64,000 nt of DNA from the IMG/VR virus record IMGVR_UViG_3300035698_018106, positions 102,717 to 166,716 of that record. One strand, written 5' to 3'. A model generated the notes under the pieces. The model saw only the letters and a program-made list of their open reading frames with translations. It searched no databases and had not been told where the DNA came from. Origin of the DNA: a virus. Shown piece after piece: positions 1,574 to 33,225 of this stretch. The first letter of the stretch is position 1. Each line of letters begins with the position of its first letter. The position numbers and the translations under genes are program-made.

Positions 1574-1657
1574 TTATTCATTTTTAAATTAATAGTTAAA
1601 TATAACAACAAAAGTTGGGATAAAAAATATTATCCCAACTTTATTTATAAAAAATTA

Positions 1658-6447: not shown

Positions 6448-6481
6448 ACAAAGTAGTTTATTTTATATATCCAATAAAAAA

Positions 6482-6526: not shown

Positions 6527-9076
6527 TTAACCACACCTTGAAAAACTACAAGATGTACAATGAACACACCCTTCTTCTCTTATTAAATCAGCTTTACAAT
6601 CAGGACATTTCTCTTCTAATTTTACAGATTCTTCATATCTGCTCAAGTATCTCCTAACAACTGATGAAAAAGAAGTAATATTTTCATCTATTTTTTTAAT
6701 TACATTATTAACATGAGATATAGGGGCACCATGACGCAATAACATAGAGGCAGTTAACGTTAATATTTTAAACTCAATTCTATCTGCGGCTATTTGAAGT
6801 TCTTCTATTTCAAATTCACCATTAATAAACTTATAATGTCCTTTTTTAACTTTGATAATCTTACCTGTTGTGTTTTTAAGACTTGGAGGATTCTCAAACC
6901 CCATTATTTCATAAGGTCTATTAGTTCCAGGCCATTTACCTATAATAACAGCAAAATCTCTTCCATCTGCTTTAGCAGCATAATAATCTGCTTCTAATTC
7001 TTTAGGTCTTTTTGGTGCATTTGATTCTGGAAATTCTTCTATTTCATTTGTTTCTTCTTTTTTACTTAATATAACACCTGTTCTAGATCCTTCTCTATAA
7101 ATAGTGCAACCTTTGCATCCGGCTTTCCAAGCTTCAAAGTATATATCATTAACTTCTTTCTTAGTTGTTTGTGATGGTAAATTATGAGTTACTGAGATTG
7201 AATGGTCAATCCATTTCTGAATAACACCTTGCATTCTTACTTTTTCTAAATAATCAATTTCATGAGATTCAGATCCTGCCCAAGGAGATTCTTTTATAAT
7301 ATCATTTAAATTAGATTCAGATAAACCATTAAGATAAATATCAACATCAATTATTTCTTTTCCTTCTTTAGTAGTTTTATACCATTCTAAGAATGTAGTA
7401 TGTAAAACATTAAATTCTTCCCATGAATCACCATTTTCATCAACAAAATCAATTTTAACAGTAGGATCATTAGGATTAACTTTTTTCCTTCGTAATGATA
7501 TAATTTTAAATACAGGCTCTATACCTGAAGTGGTTTGAGATGCTATTGCTAATGTACCAGTTGGAGCAATAGATAATGAAGCGATATTTCTTCTACCATA
7601 TTTTATATAATCCTCATATTCTGCAGTACTAAAATTAGCAGAAATAATTCTATTAATGAATGGATTATTAGATTCTTTATCGTAATTCCATATAGGAAAT
7701 GCTCCTCTTTCTTTTGCTAATTGAACAGTTTCTTTATAACAACTAACAGCTAGATTTTTAAATATTTTATCGATGAATTTAGTAGATTCTTTAGATCCAT
7801 ATCGCATACCTAATTTAGCTAGCATATCACCTAGTCCTAATACACCAATACCGGTTCTTCTTCCATTTCTTAGCACAGTCAAAACATTATTCCATGTTTC
7901 CAACTCAACTCTTTTTAATAGTTTAGCTTCCGGATCTTTTTTAATTTTTGCTAAAATCTTCTCTATTTTTTCTTCTTCTAATGATACAATATCATCCATA
8001 GTACGTTGAGCAAATCTAGCAGTTTTTTCTAATTTAGCCCAATCTATTTTAGCATTTTTCTTAAATGGATTTTTAACATGATTTGATAAATTAAGTGATC
8101 CTAATCTACATGAATCGTAAGATGACAAAGGAACTTCGCCACATGGATTTGTTCCTTTAGTTTCGAATCCTAAATCTGCATAACAATCTGATGGAGATTC
8201 GGATATTATTGAATCCCAAAATAAAATGCCTGGTTCTGCATTTTTATGGGCCATTTCAATAGTTTTATCCCATAATTCTTTGGCTTTTATCCTTTTTATA
8301 TACATACCATTATCTAATTTATGAATAGCATCATATGGTGTTTGTATATCAATTTTAGGTTGTTTGTTTGTTGTTGGCCAATGTAGAATATAATCTTGAT
8401 CTTGTTCAACAGCTTTCATAAACTCATCAGTTACTTTAAGAGAAACATTAGCTCCAGTAACTTTAGATAAATCCGCCTTTTTAATAACAAATGTAGGGGA
8501 ATCTGGATGATTAACATGCATACTAATCATTAATGCTCCCCTCCTACCGTCTTGTGCAACTTCTCTAGTTGTGTTTGAATATCTATCCATAAATGAAGGA
8601 GCGCCGGTTGAAGATTGGGCTGAGTTATTAACATAACTGCCTATAGGTCGAAGATTTTCTATAGTAATACCAACACCTCCTCTTCTTTTCATTAATTGTG
8701 CAATTATTTCATCAATATTAATAATTGCGCCATAAGAATCAGAGTTATTATCTATAAAAAAACAATTTCCAAGAGATGACATTTGGTAATTATTTCCTAA
8801 CCCAAATAATATAGACCCTCCATAAATGAAATTTCCAAATCCTTTTAAATTATCATATATCTCTTCTTTATTAAGAGGGTGTGGATATTCTTGTTCTTTC
8901 CTAAAAATCTCATTTGTTATTCTATTAATAGTATTATCAGGCATTAATTCTATAAACTTTCCTTTTTCTTTAAGTGCATACTTATTAATCCAAACTTGTG
9001 TTGCTAAATTATCACCCTTAAAATAAGGTAAAGTAGCATCATTAAGTTGATCAATTGTATAGGTTTCATTAGTCAT
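6527..9076 (-). CDS. nrdJ: ribonucleotide reductase, class II (adenosylcobalamin-dependent, monomeric NrdJ-like) with a C-terminal Zn ribbon
   Basis: 849 aa. Active-site motif TNPCGEVPLSSYDSCRLGSLNL (the class II NPCGE...CxLGSxNL pattern). Glycine-rich GGVGI segment. C-terminal CPDCKADLIREEGCVHCTSCSFSRCG. Confidence 0.8.
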   Translation of the reverse strand: MTNETYTIDQLNDATLPYFKGDNLATQVWINKYALKEKGKFIELMPDNTINRITNEIFRKEQEYPHPLNKEEIYDNLKGFGNFIYGGSILFGLGNNYQMSSLGNCFFIDNNSDSYGAIINIDEIIAQLMKRRGGVGITIENLRPIGSYVNNSAQSSTGAPSFMDRYSNTTREVAQDGRRGALMISMHVNHPDSPTFVIKKADLSKVTGANVSLKVTDEFMKAVEQDQDYILHWPTTNKQPKIDIQTPYDAIHKLDNGMYIKRIKAKELWDKTIEMAHKNAEPGILFWDSIISESPSDCYADLGFETKGTNPCGEVPLSSYDSCRLGSLNLSNHVKNPFKKNAKIDWAKLEKTARFAQRTMDDIVSLEEEKIEKILAKIKKDPEAKLLKRVELETWNNVLTVLRNGRRTGIGVLGLGDMLAKLGMRYGSKESTKFIDKIFKNLAVSCYKETVQLAKERGAFPIWNYDKESNNPFINRIISANFSTAEYEDYIKYGRRNIASLSIAPTGTLAIASQTTSGIEPVFKIISLRRKKVNPNDPTVKIDFVDENGDSWEEFNVLHTTFLEWYKTTKEGKEIIDVDIYLNGLSESNLNDIIKESPWAGSESHEIDYLEKVRMQGVIQKWIDHSISVTHNLPSQTTKKEVNDIYFEAWKAGCKGCTIYREGSRTGVILSKKEETNEIEEFPESNAPKRPKELEADYYAAKADGRDFAVIIGKWPGTNRPYEIMGFENPPSLKNTTGKIIKVKKGHYKFINGEFEIEELQIAADRIEFKILTLTASMLLRHGAPISHVNNVIKKIDENITSFSSVVRRYLSRYEESVKLEEKCPDCKADLIREEGCVHCTSCSFSRCG

Positions 9077-9118: not shown

Positions 9119-10555
9119 TTAAATAGTAGCTTTTAATCTTCGTTCTTTAATTTTTTGCAATTCATCCATCTCAATATCTGCTCTTTGAGATGTCTTTTTA
9201 GCCACTTTTCGTTGAGCATAAAAGTTAGCTAATATTTCTGGTATTAATGGTTCAAATGACGCGTCAAAAACAGCTCCAGATGAACATTTTATTTGATTAT
9301 CATTAGTTTTATAAAGTTTATCTTTGGTTATAAAATTCTCTATAGATATCATAAATTGTCTCATGATAGAAGGATAAAGAGATGCAAAGTCAAAAGAAGC
9401 TACCCAACCATATAAACCAGGTACAGGCTCAAATACAAAAGCTCCTTCGAATTGTTCTCTTTGTTTCTTATCCCATATTTTCGGAAATACTTGTTTCCTT
9501 TTATATGCATATCTAGATAAAGTGGCTTCCAACATTTGTATAGGAGAAAATGCATTCATAGCTTCAACCTGAGTAATATTTCCAAGTCCTAAGAAGGTAC
9601 TCATGGTTTTCAACTTTTCGTCCATTAATTCAACAAGAACAGAATCAATAGCATTATAGAAAACATATAATTCATAATCTTTATTAAACAATTCTTGAAA
9701 TGTTCCACCATATTTAACTTTTCTAATTCCGGTAGCTGCTTCAGCCACAAAATCTAATGTATTATTTTCCTTTACATCAATTGTTCTATCCCATTTCATA
9801 TAAATGGACATATAATCAACAATTAATTTATGTTGAGGAAGCATGATAGTCTTTGTTTTACCTCTGTCTTTTATTCTGTGTTCATACCATTGTCCGGTGG
9901 GTGACATCCAAGATATATCCATTCCTAATCTTTTTGTACATCTATTATAAATATACAACCAATCATATCCCCAAAAATTCCACCCTGTTATAAGAGGTGC
10001 TGTTCTAGCATAATTATATAACCAATCATATAACATATCAGCTTCATTATCATATTGTTTATAAACAAATTTATATTGTCTATCGTATTTGTCAATATGT
10101 TTATTAATGCTTTTTTCTATTCTATCGCATTCTTCACCCGATAAAGGTTTTAAACCAAATACTATGATATCCGGATATCTAACCCATGATATTGAATTAA
10201 TTCTATTTTTTGCCTCATCAGCTCCTGGAAATCCTTCATCAGTAACATCTACTTCAATATCACAAGCATATAATTTAGGGAGATTACGTTCGAATAAATG
10301 TTTTGTGTTAGCTTCGCCTGCATCCATAAAAAATTCTTGAATTCTGTGTTTATCAAGAAATTGTGATGGTCTTTTTGAAACTGGTTTATTGTCCCATGAT
10401 TTAATACCAGGAACAGCTTTACTTTGTTGATTAGTATATGAATAAGAATATTGGTGGTTTGAGGGTATAGCTAATTGAGAAAAAGCTACTTCACCTTCTT
10501 TATTAATGTATGAGACGACCATACGTCCTTGTCTTTGTTCTATATTTATTACCAT
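9119..10555 (-). CDS. DNA polymerase, family B, T4 gp43-like: N-terminal fragment (3'-5' exonuclease domain through polymerase motif A) only
   Basis: 478 aa, collinear with T4 gp43 residues ~100-470. Matches: LYACDIEV (Exo I; T4 VANCDIEV), ITGWNFWGYDWLYIYNR (T4 FTGWNIEGFDVPYIMNR), FYNAIDSVLV (Exo II; T4 YNIIDVESV), FEGAFVFEP (T4 FPGAFVFEP) and SFDFASLYPSIMRQ (motif A; T4 SFDLTSLYPSIIRQ). The ORF stops before the KxxxNSxYG and YGDTDS motifs. The RNR start codon lies 42 nt downstream. Confidence 0.8.
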   Translation of the reverse strand: MVINIEQRQGRMVVSYINKEGEVAFSQLAIPSNHQYSYSYTNQQSKAVPGIKSWDNKPVSKRPSQFLDKHRIQEFFMDAGEANTKHLFERNLPKLYACDIEVDVTDEGFPGADEAKNRINSISWVRYPDIIVFGLKPLSGEECDRIEKSINKHIDKYDRQYKFVYKQYDNEADMLYDWLYNYARTAPLITGWNFWGYDWLYIYNRCTKRLGMDISWMSPTGQWYEHRIKDRGKTKTIMLPQHKLIVDYMSIYMKWDRTIDVKENNTLDFVAEAATGIRKVKYGGTFQELFNKDYELYVFYNAIDSVLVELMDEKLKTMSTFLGLGNITQVEAMNAFSPIQMLEATLSRYAYKRKQVFPKIWDKKQREQFEGAFVFEPVPGLYGWVASFDFASLYPSIMRQFMISIENFITKDKLYKTNDNQIKCSSGAVFDASFEPLIPEILANFYAQRKVAKKTSQRADIEMDELQKIKERRLKATI

Positions 10556-19310: not shown

Positions 19311-20843
19311 TTAAAGTTGAATTTTGAATCTTTTATAAGGGAAACGTTTTTCAGCGTAAATATCTCTTCTAGCATCCGCATGTCTCATTAAATAATTTTT
19401 TCGTTGATATCCACTTCCAAACTCATAATTATCAAAAAAATCAATAACTATAACCTTTTCTTTACCTGACATAAGTCTCATACCTCTACCCAAAACTTGT
19501 CTTACTATAAAATCTGATTTATAAGATTCCACTACAAAAATAGTATGTAAGTTTAAAATATCTATACCTTCAGAAAAAGTACCAATAGATGCAACAATTA
19601 TCACATCATTATTGTCTTCCATTTGTTTTTTATAATAGTCTCTATTATCTGCACCTGTACCACCATCTATGTAATAGACGCTTTTGTCTGTGTTCTCTTT
19701 TATCCAATTATATATAGTCCTACCATAATTATTTTTAATGTCACTAAATAACACTAGAGAGTTTTTAGTGGTTTTACTTATCATATCAACTATATAGTTA
19801 AAACGCTTTCTGGATTCCCTTGCAACATCCTTCTCTAAATTTAATAATTTAGCTCCATCTTTATCTTCAGCAGGTACATTTCTTAAATCATATAATTTTT
19901 TCTTTATATTGTTTTCAAGATAAGAAAATTCTAATCCTATTACTTCTATAGGGGTTGCATTCCCGGCATCAATTAAATCAGAAGAATGAATAGTATATAC
20001 TTTTGGTCCTAAATATGATTGAATAGTAAATGAATCACAAGAATCTTCTTTTGGAAGTGTTCCAGTTAATCCAAATTTATATTCTGCATTAAAACATTTA
20101 ACAAGAATACTTTTAATTGAATTGGCTTTAGCATGATGGGTTTCGTCTACACAAACAGCATCAAACTGTGCAAAATATTCTAATCCTTTTTTTGATAAAG
20201 TTTGATATGTTCCAAAAACTATATCAATATCTGTTTCATCATCTCTTTTCTTTGCTCCACCAAATGCGCATACAGATTTCCAATTAGGTCTCTTATCACA
20301 TCCATCTTCATATTCATAGAATTTTTCTTCTGATTGTGTTACTAATCCTACATTAGGAACAACATATAACATTTTAGGTTTATTAAGAACATCATGTAAG
20401 TATTTAAATATTAAAAAGGCTATAAGTGTTTTACCTCCTGATGTTGAAATTTCTTCTGTACAATTCTTAAATTTAATAACTCGGGCAGCACCTTCTAATT
20501 GATAATCTCTAGGTGTTATTTTAGAAGCACTGAAATATTCAGTTGCCCAAATTTTAAATGTACTAGCATCAAATTTATCATCAATCATAGAATCCATACC
20601 ATTTATAGATAAAGGGAAATGGAATTTTGTACAAACCTTTTTAATTTCCATCCACATACCGATAGGAATTCTACCCCATCTATCCATAAATTTAACATCT
20701 CCATCCCAATGAGGTACTTTTTTCTTAATGATGAAATAATTATCGACTTTTTTAGTCATAGAATATTCCAACTGTTCATATTCATTAGCTGTAGATTCTA
20801 CTATTTGTAGAAATTTCTTATCATCTGTTACTTTTAGTACCAT
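19311..20843 (-). CDS. uvsW: UvsW-like SF2 DNA helicase (recombination and replication fork remodelling)
   Basis: 510 aa (T4 UvsW is 502). Collinear matches to T4 UvsW: HWDGDVKF (NWDGRIRL), DYQLEGA, SGGKTL (Walker A), DETHH (DECH), KFGLTGTL (KFGLSGSL) and VIIVASIGTFSEGIDILNLHTIFVV (IIIVASYGVFSTGISVKNLHHVVL). Confidence 0.85.
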   Translation of the reverse strand: MVLKVTDDKKFLQIVESTANEYEQLEYSMTKKVDNYFIIKKKVPHWDGDVKFMDRWGRIPIGMWMEIKKVCTKFHFPLSINGMDSMIDDKFDASTFKIWATEYFSASKITPRDYQLEGAARVIKFKNCTEEISTSGGKTLIAFLIFKYLHDVLNKPKMLYVVPNVGLVTQSEEKFYEYEDGCDKRPNWKSVCAFGGAKKRDDETDIDIVFGTYQTLSKKGLEYFAQFDAVCVDETHHAKANSIKSILVKCFNAEYKFGLTGTLPKEDSCDSFTIQSYLGPKVYTIHSSDLIDAGNATPIEVIGLEFSYLENNIKKKLYDLRNVPAEDKDGAKLLNLEKDVARESRKRFNYIVDMISKTTKNSLVLFSDIKNNYGRTIYNWIKENTDKSVYYIDGGTGADNRDYYKKQMEDNNDVIIVASIGTFSEGIDILNLHTIFVVESYKSDFIVRQVLGRGMRLMSGKEKVIVIDFFDNYEFGSGYQRKNYLMRHADARRDIYAEKRFPYKRFKIQL

Positions 20844-22297: not shown

Positions 22298-23419
22298 TTA
22301 TATATCAATAGCATCTAAAGGATCTCCGGAGAAGTAACTTATAAAATCTACATTTTTAATTTTTTGTTGTTTAAAATAAATTACTATATCATTTAGATCC
22401 CATTTTTTTCGATAAGGTAAATTAAAATCTCTTTTGAATTTATCCCAAAGAAATACATTATGGTTTTTATTAATTTCAATTAATGCGTTTTTATCTCCTG
22501 TTGGATCGGAATCATAAAAGAAATTCACAGGTATATCAACGGGTAAATCTTTATTTGCTCCTGTGTTTGCAATAGAATTTTTAAATAGAAATGCATCCAT
22601 TGGACCTTCAAATAGTGTAATAGTTCTACTAAAATTTATTAAACATATGTTATATATCATTGATAGCGTATCTAGATAATTAACTTGCTCATTAGTTAAT
22701 AAAAGTAGAGGATTATTAATTTTATCTCTTAATTTTGATAAAGTAAAAGAATTAAATCTATTAAATCCTTTAAATAAACGCATTTGTGCTCCTAAAATCT
22801 TACCTGTTTGGGTAAGGTTTAAAATTAAGAGATAATTATCATTTGGATGATATAGAAATTTGTTAAAATCATATTGTTCTCTATTTTTTAACCATGACCA
22901 CATAGGGGTATCTTTAACTTCTATAACACCTAAACTAGTTTTAATATCTTGACGATCAATAGCATATTTATCTATACTTTCCATATCTAAAAGTTCAGAC
23001 ATGTCATATTTTCCTCCTGATGTAGATTTAAAATCGCCTATATTATCCATTAAATAATTTATAGCGCCTAATTCTAAAATTATATCATGCTCTTTAAAGA
23101 ATCTATCTATCCTCATAAATTCTGCACAATTATGACATTTGAAAAAACCAGCGTGTTTTCCTGCTAGTATAAAATTCCCCCTTTTAGCATAATCACTTTT
23201 CATACTATCTCCACAAATAGGACAAGCGAAACTGATACGATCATGATGAGGTTGGATTTGAGTTTTTCCATGTGAATTCGGAAATCTTTTCTCAAGAATA
23301 GGTTTTAATAAATCTGTTAATTTATCTTTATATTCTCCAGTAGTTAGCTTTGCATCTAAAGAAGAATGGAGAGATGAATCAAAGCTCATCTCTCCATTTA
23401 AAATCTTGTCAATTGACAT
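22298..23419 (-). CDS. 61: DNA primase, T4 gp61-like (Zn-ribbon plus TOPRIM)
   Basis: 373 aa. ISFACPICGDSMKSDYAKRGNF...FKCHNCAEFMRIDRFFKEHD aligns with T4 gp61 LRFRCPVCGDSKTDQNKARGWY...IHCYNCNYHAPIGIYLKEFEP. LFEGPMDAFLFKNSIANTGA aligns with T4 VLEGPIDSLFIENGIAITGG (TOPRIM). Confidence 0.85.
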   Translation of the reverse strand: MSIDKILNGEMSFDSSLHSSLDAKLTTGEYKDKLTDLLKPILEKRFPNSHGKTQIQPHHDRISFACPICGDSMKSDYAKRGNFILAGKHAGFFKCHNCAEFMRIDRFFKEHDIILELGAINYLMDNIGDFKSTSGGKYDMSELLDMESIDKYAIDRQDIKTSLGVIEVKDTPMWSWLKNREQYDFNKFLYHPNDNYLLILNLTQTGKILGAQMRLFKGFNRFNSFTLSKLRDKINNPLLLLTNEQVNYLDTLSMIYNICLINFSRTITLFEGPMDAFLFKNSIANTGANKDLPVDIPVNFFYDSDPTGDKNALIEINKNHNVFLWDKFKRDFNLPYRKKWDLNDIVIYFKQQKIKNVDFISYFSGDPLDAIDI

Positions 23420-23423
23420 GATT

Positions 23424-24413
23424 TTAAAGATTTCCTAAAACATCATTAATATCTCCTATTCCGCCAACACCAACTTCAGGTAAGTCCGGTAGATCAATAC
23501 TAGGTAAACCTGCCCCGCCTGGTGTATTACCTACATTTAGATCATCTAGTGATATATCACTAGATGTAATACCACCATTATTAACATCAGATACTGGATT
23601 ACTACCATGTGTTTGTGCTTGAACAGATGCTATATTATTAGTAGTATTAACTTGTCCTGTTACAGATGTTATAACTCCATTAACATAATCATATGTATCT
23701 TGATCCCATTCTTTGAAACCGTATTTTCCTAAATTAGGAGAATTATTAACAAGATAATCAAATACCATTTTCTTATCTGTTGTTGGAGTAATAGGATTTA
23801 ATTTTCCTTCTCCATCTGGAATACATAATGGAATTACCTGATCAACAAATTTTGATTGATCATAGTTATTGAAACCTGATACCTTTGTAATAGTTAAAGC
23901 AAATGCTTTACCTCCTAATAATTCAAAAGGATTATGTGGTTCTCCAATTACAGGTTTCAATTCTGCATTAATTTTTTCCCATAATTTCTTACCAAAACGA
24001 TATGCTAAGATTTTACCTTCAAGTTCTGGTTGTTGCTTATCTTTAATAACTTGTATTAAACATGCAAAATTATGTCGTCTTGAAAAAATATCGGCTTTTT
24101 TCTGTTCTTGAACTGACGGACTTTTCTTAAGTTTAAAATACATATCTTGTAAAAGAGATGGTTTTCCTACTGAAGATGGGCAGTCTACGAAACGTCCTTT
24201 TTGAGTTACTGGATCTACTAACCACGATACCCACTTTTCTTGAATTGATTGTCCTGGATTTTCATGCCATGGAATTAAACGGATAACTGATTGGTATACT
24301 CCGCCTTGGCCTTTGTCGGCGCCTACTTGGTAATCTTCGGCGTTTTTCTTGTTTTGTTCACCCATGTCTACTTTTGGGCTGAACAATGCATCAAAATTTT
24401 CTAATTCACTCAT
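23424..24413 (-). CDS. 32: single-stranded DNA-binding protein, T4 gp32-like
   Basis: 329 aa. GVYQSVIRLIPW (T4 GQAVIRFLPS), ILAYRFGKKLWEKINA (T4 VFKYRFGKKIWDKINA), FALTITKVSGFNNYDQSKF (T4 FVLKVKQVSGFSNYDESKF), and an acidic C-terminal tail ...DISLDDLN (T4 ...DLDDLLNDL). Confidence 0.9.
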   Translation of the reverse strand: MSELENFDALFSPKVDMGEQNKKNAEDYQVGADKGQGGVYQSVIRLIPWHENPGQSIQEKWVSWLVDPVTQKGRFVDCPSSVGKPSLLQDMYFKLKKSPSVQEQKKADIFSRRHNFACLIQVIKDKQQPELEGKILAYRFGKKLWEKINAELKPVIGEPHNPFELLGGKAFALTITKVSGFNNYDQSKFVDQVIPLCIPDGEGKLNPITPTTDKKMVFDYLVNNSPNLGKYGFKEWDQDTYDYVNGVITSVTGQVNTTNNIASVQAQTHGSNPVSDVNNGGITSSDISLDDLNVGNTPGGAGLPSIDLPDLPEVGVGGIGDINDVLGNL

Positions 24414-24640
24414 TGTTTTAAGTCTTTTTAGTTTTTAAGATTCTAAATTTTTTAGAATTCTAAGTTTATTAATATTTGTAATCTTTGTAATCTTTTAAGG
24501 TACCTTTTAGATTGTTTACTATAGTTTATATATCAAAAAAGCAGTAAAGTTTTTTAACTTTTTGTTAAAGTTTTACTACCTCTAAGTTATTACAATCCAA
24601 TACATTAAAATCACATTAACATACTCTTAACACAAAAGAC

Positions 24641-25009
24641 TTAACACTCATTTTTTACATTTTCTAATTTTTTAATATTTGGATTATATGTATCTAGTTT
24701 AATACATTTATGGAGGATTTCTAATGTTTCTACCTCAGTGTAATTATCAGGTCTTATATAAAAGCACTCTGGTTCTATTGGTATATTATTATACAAATAA
24801 ATCATTTGCGCACTGTCTTTATAATCTACACTTATTAAAAACCGAATATTGTTTTTGATTTGATATTTTTCCATAAAAGCATTATCGGGAATAACTTCAA
24901 AATCCATAGATACAATATTAACATCTGTGTTAATTAATAAAGTTTTAATAGATTTATAAGATGCTTGAGAAAAAATATTTAACTCTTTAATAAATTCATT
25001 ATTGTCCAT
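24641..25009 (-). CDS. hypothetical protein
   Basis: 122-aa ORF. Confidence 0.4.
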   Translation of the reverse strand: MDNNEFIKELNIFSQASYKSIKTLLINTDVNIVSMDFEVIPDNAFMEKYQIKNNIRFLISVDYKDSAQMIYLYNNIPIEPECFYIRPDNYTEVETLEILHKCIKLDTYNPNIKKLENVKNEC

Positions 25010-25045: not shown

Positions 25046-25504
25046 TTAGTATAAAACTAAAGTATTTGGGTCATTATGGTCATATTCAGGATCAATTACG
25101 AATCCTTGTTTTATAAAAGCTTCTTCAGCATCATTTGTGAATGGGTGAAGTATAATAGGCAATTGATATTTTGTTTTTAGAAAGTTAAATACCTGTTTAC
25201 TTATGCTAAATCCTCTAAATTTATATCCAATATAGATCCAGTTTATAATAATATCTTTTGTTCTTATTTTATAATCTATAACACCACATACTATATCATT
25301 ATTATAAATTACAAAAATATTAGTTCCTTTGACAGAATCTAATATCATTTCATCTGTTTCATTGGTATAATCAAATTCTGAATCTATAAATTTTTCTGAA
25401 TCCTTAAAATTTTTAACTAACTTGATATTATTTATTAATTTCGCTCTCATTTTATTCCCATCCTTTTTGAACATCTGGAGAGAAGTTCGCATACGAAAAT
25501 TCAT
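25046..25504 (-). CDS. hypothetical protein (possible GNAT-like fold). The true start is probably an internal Met (ATG at 25450-25448), which avoids the overlap with the upstream gene.
   Basis: 152-aa ORF. IGYKFRGFSISKQVF weakly resembles GNAT motif A. The 5' 53 nt overlap the upstream CDS in another frame. Confidence 0.35.
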   Translation of the reverse strand: MNFRMRTSLQMFKKDGNKMRAKLINNIKLVKNFKDSEKFIDSEFDYTNETDEMILDSVKGTNIFVIYNNDIVCGVIDYKIRTKDIIINWIYIGYKFRGFSISKQVFNFLKTKYQLPIILHPFTNDAEEAFIKQGFVIDPEYDHNDPNTLVLY

Positions 25505-27317
25505 CTCTAGATACTAACTTAACTACATTACCATTTAAATCACTACATGCAAAACCCTCTTGATTAGTTTTCTTTAAATCTCCAGATTTCATCTTAAGAT
25601 AAGTTTGGAATTTACCAATATTATTAAGTTTACTTATAAAGATTTCTTTTAGATTTGAAATTTCAGATATCATATGTATAATATATATCCATTCTTTATT
25701 TGATTGCTCTATAGCGTCAATCATCTCGGCAAATCTAACTATAACTTTATTTTGTCCTTTTTCAGTTTTAAGTTTACCTGCTTCCATTAACGATCTATTT
25801 TGAAGGAATTCTATAAATTCTGCAAGAACACCTTCTATCGAATTAAATGAATTAATTTTTACATTAGCTTTAATTAAAGAGTTCTGATAAATGTTAAATA
25901 ATTTTATAAGCTTTGTTGATTTGATTATATCATGATAATTAGTAGATATTTTAAGTGTTTTACCTATTACATTTAGATCAGTTAAAATAATTTCTATTTC
26001 TTTAGATTCTTCTTCTGTAAAGTTTATAACCCCTGCAAATGACTCAATATAAGGGTCTGTCATTAACATATTATCAATACTTGTTAATTCGGAAGATTTA
26101 GCATCATAACTAGCGCTAACATTTTCTAAATCTTTTCCTGTATATCTAGTATGCCATGTAATACCTATATCTGCTTTATTTATAAGATTTCCTAAATCTG
26201 ATTTTTTAGGTATAACATAATAAATAGTGTTTGGATGAAATGCCCAATAAGGTTCTCCTTCTATTTCGGCATCTTGTAATGACATATCATCAAATAAGAA
26301 ATCACCTTGCCAAATTTCTCCTTTTGGAAGATTAATTTTATCTATGTATTTTAGAAATGTTTTTAATTTATAAACTAATTGAGGTCTTTCTCCTAATTCA
26401 GATTCTATTTCAGCAATTGTTGAAAATACTTTTGGAGATTTTGAAAAAAGTCCTTTCATTGCAATACCATTATCTGGTAATCCTGGAAATTTAGACCATG
26501 CAAATATAGCAGGGGCTCCATCTATCTTTACAGAAAGACTCATATCTTCTTTTTTAGTTGAACCCTTTAGATCATTATATAAATTATTAAACATTTTTAG
26601 AACCCAATCAATTCCCTCTACTCCACCAAGTAATACTAAATCCTCAGCATGTGTCATATGCTTATTTACTTTTGATACTATAGTAGATTCATCTAATTTA
26701 TTAGACCCACCTAAATATTTCCATATATTTTCTATTTGATTTACTGAATTTTCAGGATATCCTGAAGCAAAACCTTTAAAATCGTCATTTTTGATATCTT
26801 CTCTTAATATAGATGCAGAAATTAATTCACCTTGATGTGGTCCATTTTTAAATTTCATAGGATCTACATCAATTACTAATTCAACTATTTCAACATCTTT
26901 AGGTACTCCATCAAAATATTTTCCTCCAGGTTGATTTTGTGTAGTAAAATCAACTACTCTTTTATAATCATCGCCTTTTGTACTAGCTCCTAACGCATAA
27001 CGACCTGGAGGTAAATCTTCAACTGCTTTATATGCAGTCAAAATAGGTGATGGATATTTTGATTTTTCTATAGATACATTAGAGATATGATTAGTAAGTT
27101 CTTTAGCAATCTTTACTCCTAAATCTTGACTTATTCCATCTCGTTCTTTAGGACCAACTATTACTTTAACTTCTTTTACATTTGGATGTTGAGCATATCT
27201 ATAAATTAAATCCAGATGAGCTCCTGTTGTTGGTTTAAACCCGCCCGGAATCATAATTATGATATCTGGTGGGTTTTTTGTTTTATCCCATTCTTTAATT
27301 GTCAGAAATCTTTTCAT
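25452..27317 (-). CDS. Two-domain protein: an N-terminal cytidylyltransferase-fold nucleotidyltransferase domain (NMNAT-like GxFxPxTxGH) and an Rnl1-like RNA ligase domain
   Basis: 621 aa. IIIMIPGGFKPTTGAHLDLIYRYA matches the (H/T)xGH nucleotidyltransferase signature. LSVKIDGAPAIFAW at ~residue 262 resembles ligase motif I (T4 Rnl1 ILTKEDGSLVSTY). AEIEGEPYWAF...YYVIPKKSDLG resembles Rnl1 motifs IV and V (EGYVAV...KIKSDWY). Confidence 0.45.
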   Translation of the reverse strand: MKRFLTIKEWDKTKNPPDIIIMIPGGFKPTTGAHLDLIYRYAQHPNVKEVKVIVGPKERDGISQDLGVKIAKELTNHISNVSIEKSKYPSPILTAYKAVEDLPPGRYALGASTKGDDYKRVVDFTTQNQPGGKYFDGVPKDVEIVELVIDVDPMKFKNGPHQGELISASILREDIKNDDFKGFASGYPENSVNQIENIWKYLGGSNKLDESTIVSKVNKHMTHAEDLVLLGGVEGIDWVLKMFNNLYNDLKGSTKKEDMSLSVKIDGAPAIFAWSKFPGLPDNGIAMKGLFSKSPKVFSTIAEIESELGERPQLVYKLKTFLKYIDKINLPKGEIWQGDFLFDDMSLQDAEIEGEPYWAFHPNTIYYVIPKKSDLGNLINKADIGITWHTRYTGKDLENVSASYDAKSSELTSIDNMLMTDPYIESFAGVINFTEEESKEIEIILTDLNVIGKTLKISTNYHDIIKSTKLIKLFNIYQNSLIKANVKINSFNSIEGVLAEFIEFLQNRSLMEAGKLKTEKGQNKVIVRFAEMIDAIEQSNKEWIYIIHMISEISNLKEIFISKLNNIGKFQTYLKMKSGDLKKTNQEGFACSDLNGNVVKLVSRDEFSYANFSPDVQKGWE

Positions 27318-27377: not shown

Positions 27378-28124
27378 TTATAAATTTGATATTGTTCTTA
27401 TCATTGAGATGAGACTAGGTTGTGGATGACAATCTTGTTTATCACTTGGTTTTCTAAAAGATACATGTGTCCATACTCCTGGTGTGCCATCTAGAGCCCT
27501 CTGAGATACATCCCACATATCTTCATTATATGTTAATGGTATATTATAACTAGCACCCCAAAGGAGCAGAAGTTCACCGACAGATGCTAATTGTTCATCT
27601 GTATATGTTTCATAATATTTAAAGCCTCTAAATCCATCTTTATATTCTGTAACAGGACAATTTACAATATTTCCATAACAGGCATAATACTTTCCAGAAA
27701 CTGTTTTTTTCATTCGTGGTGTACCATCAGAATTCTTTCCGAATCTCATTTCTGTACCATCTCCTAAAACTAAGCCACCCCAATTATCGAATTCAATTCC
27801 AATTGAATATTTATCTAAAATATACTTTCCTTTTACACCTACATGAGATCCAAAAAATTTAGATGAAAATAGTTGATTAATAGTACCATCTCTGTCAATC
27901 ATTGCACATGTTGATACTGACTTATAGTTTTCCCAATGTTTTAAGTCTCCTGTAATTCCATCTCCACTAACAGTATGATGTAATATTATTTGAGACTTAG
28001 GATGTACTTCTTTTTTATATCTAGTCCATGGAATTTGTTTAAGTTTTTCATCTTTTATATCTAAAGCTTTTAATGAACTCCACTTATTAGAACCATAAAC
28101 AGTTACTTCTTCTATATTTGCCAT
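27378..28124 (-). CDS. N-acetylmuramoyl-L-alanine amidase (amidase_2/PGRP family) endolysin
   Basis: 248 aa. QIILHHTVSG (Zn-binding His motif) and KQDCHPQP near the C-terminus, matching the amidase_2 ...DCPG signature. Confidence 0.7.
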   Translation of the reverse strand: MANIEEVTVYGSNKWSSLKALDIKDEKLKQIPWTRYKKEVHPKSQIILHHTVSGDGITGDLKHWENYKSVSTCAMIDRDGTINQLFSSKFFGSHVGVKGKYILDKYSIGIEFDNWGGLVLGDGTEMRFGKNSDGTPRMKKTVSGKYYACYGNIVNCPVTEYKDGFRGFKYYETYTDEQLASVGELLLLWGASYNIPLTYNEDMWDVSQRALDGTPGVWTHVSFRKPSDKQDCHPQPSLISMIRTISNL

Positions 28125-28166: not shown

Positions 28167-28628
28167 TTAAATTTTTAATAGATTTTTTTTATAGATTTTT
28201 ATAATTCGCTCACATTTTTGTTTCCAATTAGGACTACCAAAAGAACTTATAGCTTTTGTTGGTGAACAATTTTTTAAAATCATTTTATTTTCTGTCCAAT
28301 CATCATCAATATGCCAAACGAAATTGTTTTCTTTTAGATAAGGCCATTTATTATCCATATTTGTAAAGTGCACTTTTTCTAATGGAAGTCCTATATCTTT
28401 AATAAGATCAAATAATTCAAAGTTAGTCTCATCAACATGATGTGTGGTATGATATTCAGCTTTATAAAGAGCATCATCACCAAATCTAGTTGTAGTAATC
28501 CATACATCATACCCTTTAATTATTAATTCCCTAGCATATTCTTTTATTGAAGGGAGTTCAATAGTGCCATCAAAATCAAATGATAAGCTAATATTTTTAT
28601 TTTCATTCATAGCGTTAAATATAACCAA
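28167..28628 (-). CDS. HAD-superfamily hydrolase (phosphatase)
   Basis: 153 aa. N-terminal SFDFDGTIE (DxDGT, the same motif as the T4 Pnkp phosphatase domain, DVDGT). Later HIDDD motif. Confidence 0.55.
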   Translation of the reverse strand: MVIFNAMNENKNISLSFDFDGTIELPSIKEYARELIIKGYDVWITTTRFGDDALYKAEYHTTHHVDETNFELFDLIKDIGLPLEKVHFTNMDNKWPYLKENNFVWHIDDDWTENKMILKNCSPTKAISSFGSPNWKQKCERIIKIYKKNLLKI

Positions 28629-28647
28629 AAAAATTAGACTAAAAAAG

Positions 28648-28678
28648 GGACATTATAATAATGTCCCTTTTTATTTTA
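28648..28678 (-). terminator. rho-independent terminator
   Basis: Stem GGGACATTA / TAATGTCCC (9 bp) with loop TAA, followed by TTTTTATTTT and preceded by AAAAAA. Confidence 0.7.
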
Positions 28679-28690
28679 TTTTGATAATTA

Positions 28691-29029
28691 TTATCCATGT
28701 ACTACGTAATCTCTAATAGCTCTGGCTCCTTTTTCTGTCATACGACTTTTTGAATCTCCATTATCATCAATATATTTTTCAAAGAAGCCATATTTTAACA
28801 TTATACCATAAAAACCAACAGCACCTTCTCTCATATCTACTATAACAGTCATTAATTCTGTATCAGTTAACACCGGAGTAGCATCCTTTATTAATTTTTG
28901 TTTAATTTTGCCTTCTATAATTTTTATTAACGATTCTTTATTAGCAAATGGAATACTAAGATATTCGTCAAATTCTCCATCTCTTATTCTCTGTTTAATT
29001 CCAGTTAAATATACATCTTTGCTTTCCAT
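28691..29029 (-). CDS. hypothetical protein
   Basis: 112-aa ORF. Confidence 0.45.
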   Translation of the reverse strand: MESKDVYLTGIKQRIRDGEFDEYLSIPFANKESLIKIIEGKIKQKLIKDATPVLTDTELMTVIVDMREGAVGFYGIMLKYGFFEKYIDDNGDSKSRMTEKGARAIRDYVVHG

Positions 29030-29159
29030 AGTTATTCATTTTATTTTATTTATGCAAGATATTTGTATATCAAGTATAAAAATAATGTTTTTAACAATAG
29101 CTTAACATCTTCATATTTAACTGATTTTTAACAATATTTATGAAACTTGTTCCAGAAAG

Positions 29160-29365
29160 TCCATATAAATATTACTTGAGCCCCGTGAAAAGTAATATCT
29201 TTATAGTATAAAGAAAAGAAAGCTGTTAAATAAATTTATTATTTCAGAAAGTTTAACTTAACTTTAACAACAGCTTGGAAACCAAGTTTTAAAAATCCAT
29301 ATAATAATTACTTGAGTTTTTGAAAAAAATGAAAAGTAATTTCTTAGTAAAGAAAAGAATTAAAG
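29160..29365. repeat. Two ~65-bp direct repeats (29160-29222 and 29296-29365), each containing an ATTACTT...AAGTAAT hairpin. A separate AGCTGTT...AACAGCT inverted repeat sits in the spacer. The whole element lies in a 345-bp non-coding region.
   Basis: The unit TCCATATAA(A/T)(T/A)ATTACTTGAG..AAAAGTAAT(A/T)TCTT..AGTA(T)AAAGAAAAGAA occurs twice, 136 bp apart. The spacer contains AGCTGTT(29221-29227)/AACAGCT(29269-29275) and a TTGGAAACCAA mini-hairpin. Confidence 0.7.
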
Positions 29366-29374
29366 AGAATATCT

Positions 29375-29998
29375 TTAAAACCCGAGCTTTTCTATTAGAG
29401 TTTCTATAACAAAATAACTATCTACTAAATCATCTATACCAGGCACGTAATTAGTTTTCTTTTTAAGAGTAGAAGGATCTGTTCTTAATAATTCATTTAA
29501 CTTATTATCTAACACTTTTTCAGAAAAAGCATTTATCATTGAATCCTTTCCTCTCTTATCCTTTCCTGCACAACCTGCAATAGATTTTATTGTTAATGGA
29601 GCGTATGTATATATATTCTCATACCCATAAAGTTCAGATAAACCTCGCACCAAAATATATCTATATCCTGCTAATTGTAATCCAGCATCTCCTTTAGATC
29701 CAAAAGAAGATCCTTCAAATCCTATAATAACTTTTTCATCACCTACTATATCTTTAACTTTATCTATTATTTTATCAGATAAAATAGATGCCATTTGAAC
29801 ATGATATCTAAATTTTTCTGAAGAATCTGTTCCTTTTGGTAATCGTTCTCTATTATCAATGTCAATATTAGCTCTTCCTAATATCTCTATAGATTTTTTA
29901 TCTAATTCTAATGGCCAAAATTTAAAACTCAATTTTCCATCTTTTAATATTGCACATGCAGTTTTATTACATGAAAAATCAAAACCGATATATATCAT
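29375..29998 (-). CDS. RuvC-like Holliday junction resolvase (RNase H fold)
   Basis: 207 aa. MIYIGFDFSCNKTACAIL (RuvC IILGIDPGSRVTGYGVI), VIIGFEGSSF (catalytic Glu region), TIKSIAGCAGKDKRGKDSM (RuvC VKQTVVGIGSAEKSQVQ) and C-terminal GIDDLVDSYFVIE (RuvC DAADALAIAI). Confidence 0.55.
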   Translation of the reverse strand: MIYIGFDFSCNKTACAILKDGKLSFKFWPLELDKKSIEILGRANIDIDNRERLPKGTDSSEKFRYHVQMASILSDKIIDKVKDIVGDEKVIIGFEGSSFGSKGDAGLQLAGYRYILVRGLSELYGYENIYTYAPLTIKSIAGCAGKDKRGKDSMINAFSEKVLDNKLNELLRTDPSTLKKKTNYVPGIDDLVDSYFVIETLIEKLGF

Positions 29999-30135: not shown

Positions 30136-30468
30136 TTATTTTCCTAATGCAATACCTATTGCTGTTGTTACTAATCTACTTGTTAATAATTTACCAAATG
30201 TACCTTTTTGATCAATACCTAGAGCTTTACATATAGCTTTTCCTATTGAAGGACCAATTAATGCTCCAGCAGCTCCACCAATTAATCCACCAAGTAATCC
30301 TTCATCTAAATCTTCTCCTTTTTGGATTTTATCTAATATGATATCGTATGCTTTTTCGGCTTCATTTAATTCTTCAACCGATATATCTATATTTCTAAGA
30401 TCTTCTGCTTCAAATATTCTACTTGAAGAACTTAATTTAATTTCATTGTATGTTGGTAAATGTTGCAT
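30136..30468 (-). CDS. small glycine-zipper membrane protein
   Basis: 110 aa. C-terminal GLLGGLIGGAAGALIGPSIGKAICKALG, i.e. GxxxG repeats. Confidence 0.4.
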   Translation of the reverse strand: MQHLPTYNEIKLSSSSRIFEAEDLRNIDISVEELNEAEKAYDIILDKIQKGEDLDEGLLGGLIGGAAGALIGPSIGKAICKALGIDQKGTFGKLLTSRLVTTAIGIALGK

Positions 30469-30497: not shown

Positions 30498-31061
30498 TTA
30501 ATCTTTATATGTGTCTCCTGTTCTATTTTTTATCTTAAATCTATTATATCTTATACCTAAAGTGAATGTATTAAATTCTGCTGCAGTTGTTGCATAACTT
30601 ACCTCAAATTGAGATAAACCAGTTGGTACTATTTTTTCAAATTCAAATGCAACTAATTCAAACCCATGCATATCCAAAAAACTAACATACATAGGTGGCC
30701 AAAAAACATTACCTTCTTGATATTTTAAAAATTCTTGTATTTGTTCAAAAATAATCCAATATGTTATAAATCCTTCAGATAACTTAAAAGTTACATCTAA
30801 ATTCTTATCAAAAATAGCCTCTAATTCTTTTCCACCTTTATATCCAATTTCAAATTGAGATTGTTGTTGAATAAGAACATTTAAATCCATAGGAGGCATT
30901 GTAACACTTTGTATAGAAGCATTAAAAAAATCTTCTATAGTCTGATATGGTAATTTTAGACGTTTAATAATTGGTTCCCATTTAGTAACTACCGAAGGAT
31001 AGAAAAAATTTGGTGGGAACCAAATTGTAAACATATTAGATTTAGCATTTAATATTGGCAT
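30498..31061 (-). CDS. hypothetical virion or tail-associated protein
   Basis: 187-aa ORF. It is the first gene of the structural cluster, downstream of a 716-aa ORF (order and sizes reminiscent of a sheath/tube pair). Confidence 0.35.
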   Translation of the reverse strand: MPILNAKSNMFTIWFPPNFFYPSVVTKWEPIIKRLKLPYQTIEDFFNASIQSVTMPPMDLNVLIQQQSQFEIGYKGGKELEAIFDKNLDVTFKLSEGFITYWIIFEQIQEFLKYQEGNVFWPPMYVSFLDMHGFELVAFEFEKIVPTGLSQFEVSYATTAAEFNTFTLGIRYNRFKIKNRTGDTYKD

Positions 31062-31074
31062 AATTAATTAATTT

Positions 31075-33225
31075 TTATAAGCGGCTAGCTAATTTTTTAT
31101 TTGGGTTAATTTTAGGCGTTGCAACTTTAGTTCCTCTCATTCTTTGATAATCAACTTTAATAATTTCTTTAGCTGGAAGAACAGGTTTAGTTGGTTTTCT
31201 TGGTTTCTTAATTGTAGGTTGAACTTTTTCTAATGTATTATTTGTTATTGTTAAGGCTAAATTTTCTTTTTCTAATATATTAATTCTGTCAGCTAACTCT
31301 TTTTCTTTAGTTGAAACCTGTTTTGTATTATCTTTCACTGGTTGTTTTGTTAAAGTAGAATTTTTATTAACTGTACTAATTTCTGAATTTCCTTTTTTAT
31401 TAGCTTTATCGGTATCTAATTCTTTTTGTAGATTACTATTAGATGCTTTCGCTGTAACTAATTGTTTATTTAATTGAGCTATTACTTGTTGGTAATTTTG
31501 TTTAGAAGTATTTTCTTCGTTTTTATCTTGTAAACTACTAAAAACTCCTTCATAAAAAGCATAACTTGTCCCATTAGGATTCTTAACCAAAATAGAGAAA
31601 TTATTATTAGTTTGACTTAATAAATTAGCTATTTGATTTTTAGATAATTTAAATTCTAATTCCCCTAAAGCAGTATTCATATTAGTAGAATATGTAGGAA
31701 CTATATTAATTTCAGAATTGTCAGCTAATACAAATGATAACTCATAATTATAAGCACCAGATAAATCTACATTTTCTCTTTGTGAAGCTGTTTCATTATA
31801 TTTTTCAAATTTAAATTTATATAAAGAATCAGTTTGTTTAAAATAAAGTTGTCCTGTACCTTGTTCATATATAACATTTTCTTCATTATATACAATATTT
31901 GTAGTATCAAAAAATACCTTTGTAAATTTAGTTTGTATTGGACCACCACCTGCTAATATATTAGCTTGTTCAGGCTCTAGTTTATTAAATACTTTATAAG
32001 GTAATATATTATCTACATTAATTCTCTGAAATTTAAGTCCGTATTTTTTAGGATCTACAGAAGAAAAACTAGCTCTTCTAATAATTTGGGATCCATCCAT
32101 TCTATTACTTAATCTACATACATATTGAATAGTATAGCTTGAGTCTATATCAGAATTTCTTAAAACAGGTCTAAAATAATTAGGTATACTAAAATTAGAA
32201 TCTTGAGTAAACGAGAATTGCTGATTTAGTATACTAGAATTTCCATAATGTTCATAAATATATAATTCATGAATGACTACCCATTTAGCTGTTTCAGAGC
32301 CATATATATTAGAAAATTCTTCATAATTATCATTAGGATTATTAGAAGTATATAATGGTATTCTCCCGCTTTCTATATCTCCCATTACTTCTCCAATAAT
32401 ATTATCATTCCATGTAGCATAAAATTCTATAAAATCACCTGCTGTTGATTCTAATATAAGAGCATTAAAACTATCTGCTACACTAGTAACTGGTAAATTT
32501 AAAGATACTTTTTCTGGTAAGGTAAATGTATTATCATCAGTTGTTGGATCAGCTTGAACTGTAGGAACAGTACTATATGTAATAAATACATCTGATAAAG
32601 GGGCGATGCCTAATAATTGACCTAAAGATGTATCATATATTCCGGGTGTTCCAGCTGATTCATTTCCTAAATCATAAATAGATGGTATTTTAAATTCTAT
32701 ATATTTGTCATAAAATCGATTTCCTAAATATAAAGATTGAGAAGAAAATTTTACTACATCTGCACTTCCTAATGCATCTGGTTGTTTAATATAAGTAAAA
32801 TTAGAAAGATCAACTAAATCATCATCATCATCTTCTGCTCTTACTTGTAAAAGAAAACCAGCTATATCATCAAAATTATAACCAGATATTACATGTAATT
32901 TAATTGTATCATGTGCATATTCATTTGTATTAACGGCTATAGAAGAATCAAAAAATTGAAAACTTTGATTGGGATATGTATAATTATTAAACCATATACT
33001 TCTATCAACATCTGTCGCAATTGAATTTAATTCTAAAATATTATTAGTTGATCCTAATGCATATCCTTTATTATTATTAAAAAATTGTTTAACTCCAGAA
33101 GTTGTCTCAGCAACAACCGGACCCATATTAGATATATCTAATTGTTCACCATCTCTACTAAATTCATATTCTAAAAGAAGAAAATCATTTATTTGTACAT
33201 ATTTACTTATATTTTGAATAGCCAT
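31075..33225 (-). CDS. structural protein with an N-terminal beta-rich region, a C-terminal coiled coil and a Lys-rich tail
   Basis: 716 aa. Heptad-like sequence ...IAQLNKQLVTAKASNSNLQKELD...ELADRINILEKENLALT..., then KKPRKPTKPVLPAK. Confidence 0.45.
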   Translation of the reverse strand: MAIQNISKYVQINDFLLLEYEFSRDGEQLDISNMGPVVAETTSGVKQFFNNNKGYALGSTNNILELNSIATDVDRSIWFNNYTYPNQSFQFFDSSIAVNTNEYAHDTIKLHVISGYNFDDIAGFLLQVRAEDDDDDLVDLSNFTYIKQPDALGSADVVKFSSQSLYLGNRFYDKYIEFKIPSIYDLGNESAGTPGIYDTSLGQLLGIAPLSDVFITYSTVPTVQADPTTDDNTFTLPEKVSLNLPVTSVADSFNALILESTAGDFIEFYATWNDNIIGEVMGDIESGRIPLYTSNNPNDNYEEFSNIYGSETAKWVVIHELYIYEHYGNSSILNQQFSFTQDSNFSIPNYFRPVLRNSDIDSSYTIQYVCRLSNRMDGSQIIRRASFSSVDPKKYGLKFQRINVDNILPYKVFNKLEPEQANILAGGGPIQTKFTKVFFDTTNIVYNEENVIYEQGTGQLYFKQTDSLYKFKFEKYNETASQRENVDLSGAYNYELSFVLADNSEINIVPTYSTNMNTALGELEFKLSKNQIANLLSQTNNNFSILVKNPNGTSYAFYEGVFSSLQDKNEENTSKQNYQQVIAQLNKQLVTAKASNSNLQKELDTDKANKKGNSEISTVNKNSTLTKQPVKDNTKQVSTKEKELADRINILEKENLALTITNNTLEKVQPTIKKPRKPTKPVLPAKEIIKVDYQRMRGTKVATPKINPNKKLASRL

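Follow-up and report, generated by a model that had tools for sequence, protein, structure and literature searches.

What occupies the 345-nt gap at positions 29030-29374 of the 64,000-nt stretch analysed here (positions 102,717 to 166,716 of the virus record IMGVR_UViG_3300035698_018106; hereafter the "window")? The gap is bounded by a gene for a RuvC-like resolvase and a gene for a 112-aa protein, and all of the genes around it lie on the minus strand. As an earlier note on this DNA had stated, it is the largest intergenic gap of the window, with the runner-up measuring 227 nt. An apparent 1.3-kb gap at 363-1657 is the 3′ portion of a DNA-ligase-like open reading frame (ORF) crossing the window start, and looks non-coding because the ORF list omits this edge-cut ORF. 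The gap holds two tandem copies of a conserved, autonomous ~110-bp non-coding DNA element, hereafter called the "module", which is most likely read by proteins.

The duplicated module and its relatives

The content of the gap is a tandem duplication with a period of 136 nt (Table 1). Units A and B are identical at 79% of 125 aligned positions, with a score of 42.5, as compared to 17.4 ± 3.3 for shuffled sequences. On the minus strand, each unit presents the same order of boxes: the pyrimidine box TTCTTTTCTTTA, a hairpin composed of ATTACTT, a loop, and AAGTAAT, then TATATGG (box 1), RGTTTC (box 2), and a GTTAA array. The earlier note had described two ~65-bp repeats, and these exist where it placed them, since the pair TCCATATAA..ATTACTTGAG occurs solely at 29160-29180 and 29296-29316 (two matches, with 0.10 expected). 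Their length needs correction: the real unit is ~136 nt and duplicates the whole module, so that the GTTAA arrays assigned to the "spacer" are actually part of the repeated unit. Likewise, each repeat does contain inverted arms, with stems of 8-11 bp instead of the 7 bp proposed. The spacer inverted repeats AGCTGTT/AACAGCT (29269-29276, 29220-29227) and CTTGG/CCAAG (29274-29286) are also present; they lie within the GTTAA region of unit B and are found only in this phage and, in part, in the relative L002. Here and below, L-numbers denote related metagenomic loci; loci were fetched around RuvC-like relatives and around homologues of the 112-aa protein.

The unusual hairpin loop of copy B is common to L002, the RuvC of which is 76% identical, and the duplication in the window therefore probably predates the split from L002. 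All of the boxes are kept in both copies, which suggests that two adjacent sites are tolerated or favoured. Other features of the units recur more widely. Tracts like TTCTTTTCTTTA are present in L002, L006, L011, L167, L003, and L168, and the two-pair GTTAA layout of copy A can be read from the sequences of L008, L026, and L006.

How far does the module extend beyond this phage? Single-protein searches of IMG/VR with the RuvC-like or the 112-aa protein gave no matches, and alignment-based searches were needed to retrieve the relatives; the RuvC-like protein has many of them in metagenomes. A nucleotide search of deposited phages with a 4-kb query matched only 100-160 nt of Lak phages, outside the element. 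By protein, the nearest deposited RuvC is also that of Lak, at only 36%, and the phage thus has no cultured or annotated relative. Among the metagenomic relatives, phages with a RuvC identity of 37-76% carry the module immediately after the RuvC-like gene, and one of these is a 405-kb contig.

We found ~34 distinct copies of the module in all, and 19 of them align without a single gap over the core TTATATGG-N14-RGTTTY-N9-GTTAA-N6-GTTAA, in which the bases separating the boxes are unconstrained. On the minus (gene) strand, a hairpin or palindrome lies upstream of the core, and zero to three extra GTTAA boxes follow it with ~11-nt phasing, often as a second pair placed 26 nt after the first. The GTTAA-N6-GTTAA spacing is invariant in the 19 aligned copies, and the arrays comprise 2-5 boxes, mainly at 11-nt steps.

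A position weight matrix trained on the other genomes only, with the window copies excluded, assigned scores of 39.0 and 33.7 to the two copies in the window. The next site in the window scored 8.5, and the maximum of 50 random 64-kb sequences was 11.7. In 915 kb of RuvC-anchored related loci, each locus has one site or tandem cluster. Moreover, a 19-base pattern retrieved 16 stretches from IMG/VR, all of which (16/16) carry the upstream boxes, while its one match in 596 Gb of bacterial genomes falls inside a Nostoc coding sequence and is evidently due to chance. The repeats, the absence of which from related genomes would have spoken against the idea put forward in the earlier note, are thus strongly conserved. 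Its general kind is known, but as a sequence family the module had not been described before.

Each sampled genome has one site, except for two large contigs with two each. In the 405-kb IMGVR_UViG_3300027899_000001, the modules L174 (~176 kb) and L177 (~370.7 kb) are ~195 kb apart, and would lie nearly opposite each other if this genome is circular. In the 130-kb IMGVR_UViG_3300005573_000060, L184 (~2.9 kb) and L170 (~83.1 kb) are ~80 kb apart. The paired modules are diverged copies in both genomes. Tandem duplication occurred independently at least three times, with periods of 136 nt in the window, 135 nt in L089, and 160 nt in L169.

The orientation of the module relative to the neighbouring genes is free, with co-directional, inverted, convergent, and divergent arrangements all present. 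In L088/L089, the two flanking genes are the same and the module between them is inverted; in L173 and L177, it is inverted inside a run of co-directional genes. Convergent genes flank it in L009/L162, L012, L014, L021, L024, L082, and L175, and divergent genes in L179 and L183. The neighbours also change. Three reverse genes are inserted between the module and the 112-aa gene in L009/L162, where the module persists, and a GIY-YIG endonuclease gene with two reverse genes is inserted between RuvC and the module in L164, where the module is degenerate. In nine further contexts, neither the RuvC nor the 112-aa gene is nearby, and the neighbours include genes for a 5′-3′ exonuclease/RNase H, an RNase H-like protein, a T4-type RNA ligase, an HNH-NUMOD3 endonuclease, and a TonB-dependent receptor.

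DNA or RNA as the acting form

Does the module act as DNA or as RNA? Short invariant boxes at invariant distances, separated by free intervening sequence, mark protein-DNA recognition, and argue with fair confidence for an element that acts as DNA and not as RNA. A scan for tRNA and tmRNA found nothing, Rfam gave 0 matches in the whole window at gathering thresholds, and RNAalifold returned an empty consensus structure for the 19 copies on both strands. The whole units fold no better than shuffled sequences (z = -1.1 and +0.7). Of the two hairpins, A (-11.1 kcal/mol, z = -3.2) is stabler than its shuffles, and B (z = 0.08) is not.

The hairpin is present in 11 closely grouped sequences, with two to three compensatory events. 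Its pair 6 is T-A in five, A-T in two, and G-C in four of these sequences and is unbroken in 11/11, pair 8 shows one further compensatory change, and G-T pairs are allowed on the gene strand only. These changes indicate selection on the inverted repeat, for which a symmetric protein site would give an equal signal. The check for covariation in related phages, which the earlier note had proposed, thus yields a signal restricted to the closer relatives and none family-wide. The distant half of the family is devoid of the hairpin, and some of its copies carry the short palindrome CTTAAGTACTTAAG instead. The direct repeat TTTAGTCT is present twice in L024/L083, and GACTCTAA twice in L026, with each pair ~three helical turns apart; CTAGAG and ATTCC boxes are also seen in distant copies.

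The earlier note had alternatively proposed two paralogous small RNA (sRNA) genes with conserved stems. Under this reading, the hairpin or the repeated GUUAA would be functional; in one variant, the transcript would lack structure and act as a decoy for a protein that binds single strands or represses translation. Free orientation, low copy number, and tandem paralogues are typical of sRNA genes, and the three Watson-Crick types of the never-broken pair 6, together with the strand bias of the G-T pairs, suit this proposal. So do one L089 copy, which has a promoter-like motif before it and a short hairpin with a T run after it, and the repeated CTAAA/TTAAA motifs in the gp32 leaders of the clade. 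However, the proposal is improbable in the face of the missing Rfam family and consensus structure, the shuffle-like folding of the units and of hairpin B, and the confinement of the hairpin to the closer relatives with no conserved terminator. Furthermore, the compensatory changes are equally expected of a symmetric protein-binding site, and the fixed-distance boxes with free spacers are typical of DNA-protein recognition.

Several other candidates were rejected. An intrinsic terminator of the RuvC-like gene does not fit the A/T stems, which contain a single G-C pair, fold at -4.7 to -11 kcal/mol, and are not accompanied by a T run of 5 or more; no conserved G+C-rich stem with a T run was found at the module copies, and the real terminators of the window look quite different. 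The frames that begin at the ATG of TATATGG span 3-15 codons and are unconserved, which argues against a small conserved ORF. A miniature mobile element or dispersed repeat is contradicted by the presence of only two tandem copies in 64 kb and of one to two sites in large genomes, and by the lack of terminal repeats. Finally, an RNA pairing of the upstream CTAGAG/ATTCC boxes of the distant copies with downstream sequence can be drawn for some of them, such as L183 and L171, and lacks consistency across the set.

Candidate functions of the module

What would such a DNA site be used for? The best-fitting single explanation is an iteron-type replication origin, to which we assign a probability of roughly 40% on the basis of the sequence pattern. 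It is favoured because of the phased repeats, the low copy number, the free orientation, the tolerated duplication, the nearby replication genes, and the size of ~100 bp. The phased GTTAA direct repeats would form a platform on which a protein binds head-to-tail on one face of the helix, and the other boxes would position further factors. The A+T-rich array and its flank would open first, and the origin would serve the T4-like replication machinery encoded just downstream, namely the gp32-like single-stranded DNA-binding protein (SSB), primase, helicase, and polymerase. A transcript-primed form in the style of T4 oriF/oriG is also possible, since box 2 (RAAAC) and box 1 (CCATATAA) on the plus strand stand in a sigma-like -35/-10 geometry that faces the hairpin and the purine tract. 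The earlier note had also suggested an origin, which is plausible, on grounds that must be replaced: the iteron-like units are GTTAA pentamers at 11-nt phasing, and not the 65-bp repeats.

Several observations weigh against an origin. The A+T content is 89% in the GTTAA array and 79-80% in the next ~100 nt, relative to a background of 70-73%, and this enrichment beside the array is modest and ordinary for intergenic DNA. The conserved repeat is merely 5-7 nt long, as compared to the 17-22 bp of classical iterons. Family and fold searches revealed no recognisable initiator gene, and the 112-aa gene is absent near nine module contexts. The gp32-like gene, both in the window and in two relatives, is likewise preceded by GTTAA/TTAAC pairs, as would suit a transcription regulator. 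The cumulative GC skew has no inflection at 29 kb and turns only at the coding-strand switches at ~46.5 and ~59 kb; in this genome the skew mainly tracks transcription and is a weak test of an origin.

Comparison with known origins reveals partial likenesses. The iteron cluster of T4 oriE consists of short direct repeats with 12-nt spacing, and its function is inferred and unproven (PMC3016281). The module resembles it in its evenly spaced short direct repeats (11 nt here) within a non-coding stretch, in belonging to a phage with T4-type replication proteins, in its syntenic conservation among related phages, and in that its function is inferred only. Unlike oriE, with which it has no sequence similarity, its repeats sit in a larger rigid unit with three other boxes, no repEA/repEB-like genes were identified here, and it is also found outside synteny in either orientation. 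The minimal T4 oriF and oriG, which combine a promoter with an unwinding element and are primed by an R-loop, measure ~100 bp (PMC3016281). Similarly, the module is ~100 bp long, self-contained, and A+T-rich, may be present several times per genome, and carries, on one strand, a promoter-like pair of boxes directed towards a hairpin and a purine tract. It differs in that its promoter is only putative, no unwinding element is clear beyond the usual intergenic A+T, and no MotA box is present: we found no TGCTT-type box at -30, and RGTTTY lies ~4 nt too near the forward candidate -10 element. Moreover, the T4 origins have no common motif, whereas the module is one conserved family. The lambda ori, R6K gamma, and RK2 oriV have in common with the module the helically phased direct repeats by A+T-rich DNA, the few sites per replicon, and the tolerance of duplication. 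Their iterons, however, are 17-22 bp long with the initiator gene overlapping or adjoining, as compared to a 5-7-nt unit and no recognisable initiator here.

The main alternative to the origin, less probable but serious, is a specialised transcription control region, in which a unique promoter is joined to a binding-site array for a regulator of direct repeats, in the style of the winged-helix response regulators. On the plus strand, RAAAC would serve as a -35-like box 17 nt from the TATAAT-like CCATATAA, with TTAAC at about -45 and -56, and transcription would start at the hairpin or palindrome to give an antisense or non-coding RNA, or in some genomes an mRNA. The fixed spacing of boxes 1 and 2 with its canonical 17-nt geometry is consistent with this alternative, as are the TGGAAA-18-TATAAT called by a consensus scan on the plus strand at 29276-29305, the GTTAA/TTAAC pairs upstream of gp32 genes, and the weak resemblance, in a fold comparison, of the neighbouring 112-aa protein to sigma region 2. 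An "AAC" in the -35 element is typical of ECF sigma promoters, and the ArcA half-site resembles TGTTA. The array also matches the architecture of ArcA/PhoB sites of the OmpR/PhoB family, which comprise two to five direct repeats at 11 bp centre-to-centre in variable number (PMC3798270). These, however, are host operators over many promoters, whereas the module is single and phage-specific with extra fixed boxes, and its 19-base pattern is absent from the bacterial genomes apart from the one chance match; no phage gene of the response-regulator type was identified in the window. Also against a promoter, at least seven lineages have the module flanked by convergent genes, so that neither direction drives a gene, the T at -7 of the putative -10 element is present in just half of the copies (counted by eye), the -35-like box is a poor match to TTGACA, and the pair of boxes 1 and 2 does not recur elsewhere in the window. 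A separate copy (ATAAATAAAATAAA) of a standard promoter-like motif of this phage (consensus TGAATATATAAAATAAA) precedes the 112-aa gene; the motif also lies 8-25 nt ahead of at least 12 other start codons in the window. This copy is also present in L089, where the module is inverted, and the module is therefore not the promoter of that gene; the inversion in L088/L089, the three reverse genes between them in L009/L162, and the convergent genes in several lineages led to the same rejection. Other promoter assignments were likewise rejected. A Bacteroidetes-type promoter (TAnnTTTG / TTTG) would place the invariant G of RGTTTY on an "n" position, and the final G is missing from the group-1 copies. 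With GTTAA as an extended -10 of a forward sigma-70 promoter, the matching -35 is unconstrained and T at -7 is not above background. Sub-matrices of boxes 1-2 and of boxes 2-4 yielded no other convincing site in the 64 kb, as a recurrent promoter class would require. A promoter/operator overlaps with a transcript-primed origin, and both could coexist; if truly a promoter/operator, the module would be a single master control point conserved across very divergent phages.

It is unlikely that the module is some other cis-acting DNA site, such as a packaging (pac) site, a partition site or "centromere", a RuvC-linked site of recombination or resolution, or the target of a homing endonuclease. The one or two orientation-independent sites per genome, the position next to the RuvC-like gene in most of one clade, and the homing endonuclease genes adjoining the module in three lineages (L164, L169, L175/L184) would suit such a site. 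In plasmid R1 parC, arrays of 11-bp direct repeats are bound cooperatively by a small DNA-binding protein encoded nearby, and the phased short repeats of the module recall them. However, parC has ten repeats as compared to two to five here, and no ParM/ParA-type partner accompanies the module in these lytic-type myovirus genomes. In the contexts examined, the module has no linked gene for a terminase, a ParA/ParB-like protein, or a recombinase, the RuvC linkage is missing in at least nine contexts, and two well-separated copies per genome would be unusual for pac. More speculative still, and of equal standing with each other, are two further ideas. The module may be a new kind of landmark in phage genomes, a multi-box DNA "address" of fixed layout for dedicated phage proteins, perhaps among them the sigma-region-2-like 112-aa neighbour, and would couple transcription to replication initiation or genome positioning in Lak megaphage relatives, with two distant addresses in the larger genomes; or it may encode an unstructured transcript, the phased GUUAA of which would titrate an SSB or translational repressor such as the gp32-like SSB. 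Least of all do we favour a recent, functionless tandem duplication with hairpins formed by chance. Although hairpin B is no stabler than shuffles and A+T-rich DNA is rich in short inverted repeats (38 pairs in 600 nt), such a neutral leftover is already contradicted by the conservation data: every conserved box is kept in both copies with scores in the range of single-copy modules, the loop common to L002 makes the duplication probably older than that split, and conservation of the module extends to relatives with as little as 37% RuvC identity.

For uncultured large phages, among them Lak megaphage relatives, practically no replication origins or other cis-acting sites have been mapped. Short and unambiguously recognisable, the module provides a concrete candidate site in dozens of genomes, is usable as a clade marker, and defines a DNA ligand for finding the proteins that bind it.

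Gene neighbourhood and further observations

The gap heads the replication block, where this block borders on the tail genes (Table 1). In most relatives, ~60 nt at most separates the RuvC stop codon from the start of the module. Homologues of the 112-aa protein are encoded in 22 loci, including all of the module-bearing loci of the RuvC clade with sufficient downstream DNA; a narrower alignment had retrieved just 7 loci. The AlphaFold2 model of this protein has a pLDDT of 93, and the searches yielded weak fold matches only, with neither a family nor a significant fold match. The 716-aa gene is likely to encode the tail sheath, judging from its position beside the tube gene.

Table 1. Positions in the window of the module copies, their boxes, and the surrounding genes
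Feature	Position	Strand	Remarks
Module copy B	29223-29365	minus	Adjoins RuvC; pyrimidine box, hairpin, TATATGG, GGTTTC, GTTAA array; matrix score 33.7
Module copy A	29085-29222	minus	Adjoins 112-aa gene; box order as in B; four GTTAA; matrix score 39.0
54-nt rigid core B, TTATATGG-N14-GGTTTC-N9-GTTAA-N6-GTTAA	29252-29305	minus	Gap-free 19-copy alignment; matrix match at 29305
54-nt rigid core A	29116-29169	minus	Gap-free 19-copy alignment; matrix match
Box 1 TATATGG, copy B	29297-29303	minus	Near-invariant column block
Box 1 TATATGG, copy A	29161-29167	minus	Near-invariant column block
Box 2 RGTTTY (GGTTTC), copy B	29278-29283	minus	
Box 2 AGTTTC, copy A	29142-29147	minus	
GTTAA array B	29253-29268	minus	29264-29268 and 29253-29257, 11 nt apart; extra one at 29258-29262
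GTTAA array A	29091-29132	minus	29128-29132, 29117-29121, 29102-29106, 29091-29095; steps of 11, 15, 11 nt
Hairpin B	29307-29340	minus	Arms ATTACTT 29334-29340, AAGTAAT 29307-29313; 8 bp; 20-nt loop
Hairpin A	29171-29196	minus	Arms 29190-29196, 29171-29177; up to 11 pairs including one G-T; 12-nt loop
Pyrimidine box TTCTTTTCTTTA upstream of hairpin B	29348-29359	minus	Purine tract on plus strand
Pyrimidine box TTCTTTTCTTTA upstream of hairpin A	29209-29220	minus	
Promoter-like motif ATAAATAAAATAAA	29040-29053	minus	Just upstream of 112-aa gene start; outside the module
716-aa gene, family unknown	31075-33225	minus	No database match
Tail tube gene	30498-31061	minus	
110-aa gene	30136-30468	minus	
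RuvC-like resolvase gene	29375-29998	minus	PHROG 159, E = 6e-13
112-aa gene	28691-29029	minus	Conserved genomic partner of the module in the RuvC-linked clade
HAD-like gene	28167-28628	minus	
Amidase gene	27378-28124	minus	
DUF6267 protein gene	25452-27317	minus	
gp32-like SSB gene	23424-24413	minus	
Primase gene	22298-23419	minus	
Helicase gene	19311-20843	minus	
DNA polymerase gene	9119-10555	minus	
Ribonucleotide reductase gene	6527-9076	minus	

The region upstream of the gp32-like SSB gene contains two kinds of short repeats. In its leader (24414-24470, minus strand), CTAAAA/TTAAA is repeated just before the start codon, and such motifs are also present in relatives (L162:19300-19390, L164:13600-13645, L169:13020-13075). 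They recall the operator through which T4 gene 32 regulates itself. A cluster of three (T)GTTAA boxes occupies 24621-24646 on the minus strand, at the distal end of the 227-nt gap that precedes the gene, and TTAAC pairs are found at the equivalent place in two relatives (L164:13510-13530, L169:12930-12950). The factor that binds the module may act at this GTTAA cluster as well.

The motif with the consensus TGAATATATAAAATAAA precedes replication and structural genes alike. It is found no more than 30 nt ahead of the start codon in the minus-strand genes that end at 6447, 13583, 15201, 18186, 18885, 19270, 28124, 29029, 30468, and 46499, and in the plus-strand genes that start at 47931 and 52621. 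In the manner of the T4 late TATAAATA box, it resembles a promoter specific to the phage. Often, it directly follows a G+C-rich terminator hairpin. Strong G+C-rich stem-loops, each set between A runs and T runs, are located at 28642-28672 and near 6480, 13620, 18230, 47870, and 52570, and are probably bidirectional terminators at operon ends.

Free-standing homing endonuclease genes lie 0.1-1 kb from the module in three lineages (L164:4846-5529, L169:6618-6941, and L175:513-1178, the last being the same in L184), and are of the GIY-YIG/NUMOD3, T5orf172, and HNH/NUMOD3 types. The module may be a homing target or mark a hot spot of insertion. In L180, the ORF at 886-2841 beside the module, in the same orientation, encodes a TonB-dependent receptor with Plug and beta-barrel domains, an unusual auxiliary gene that hints at a Gram-negative, possibly Bacteroidota-like host. 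The helicase gene fragment at L167:9521-10513 has Hint/intein domains, and the replication helicase of this relative appears to be interrupted by an intein. The DNA-ligase ORF at the window start (1-1575, minus strand, at least 524 codons) is of the NAD-dependent type by appearance, with the KxDG-like motif SPKFDGSAINIIY.

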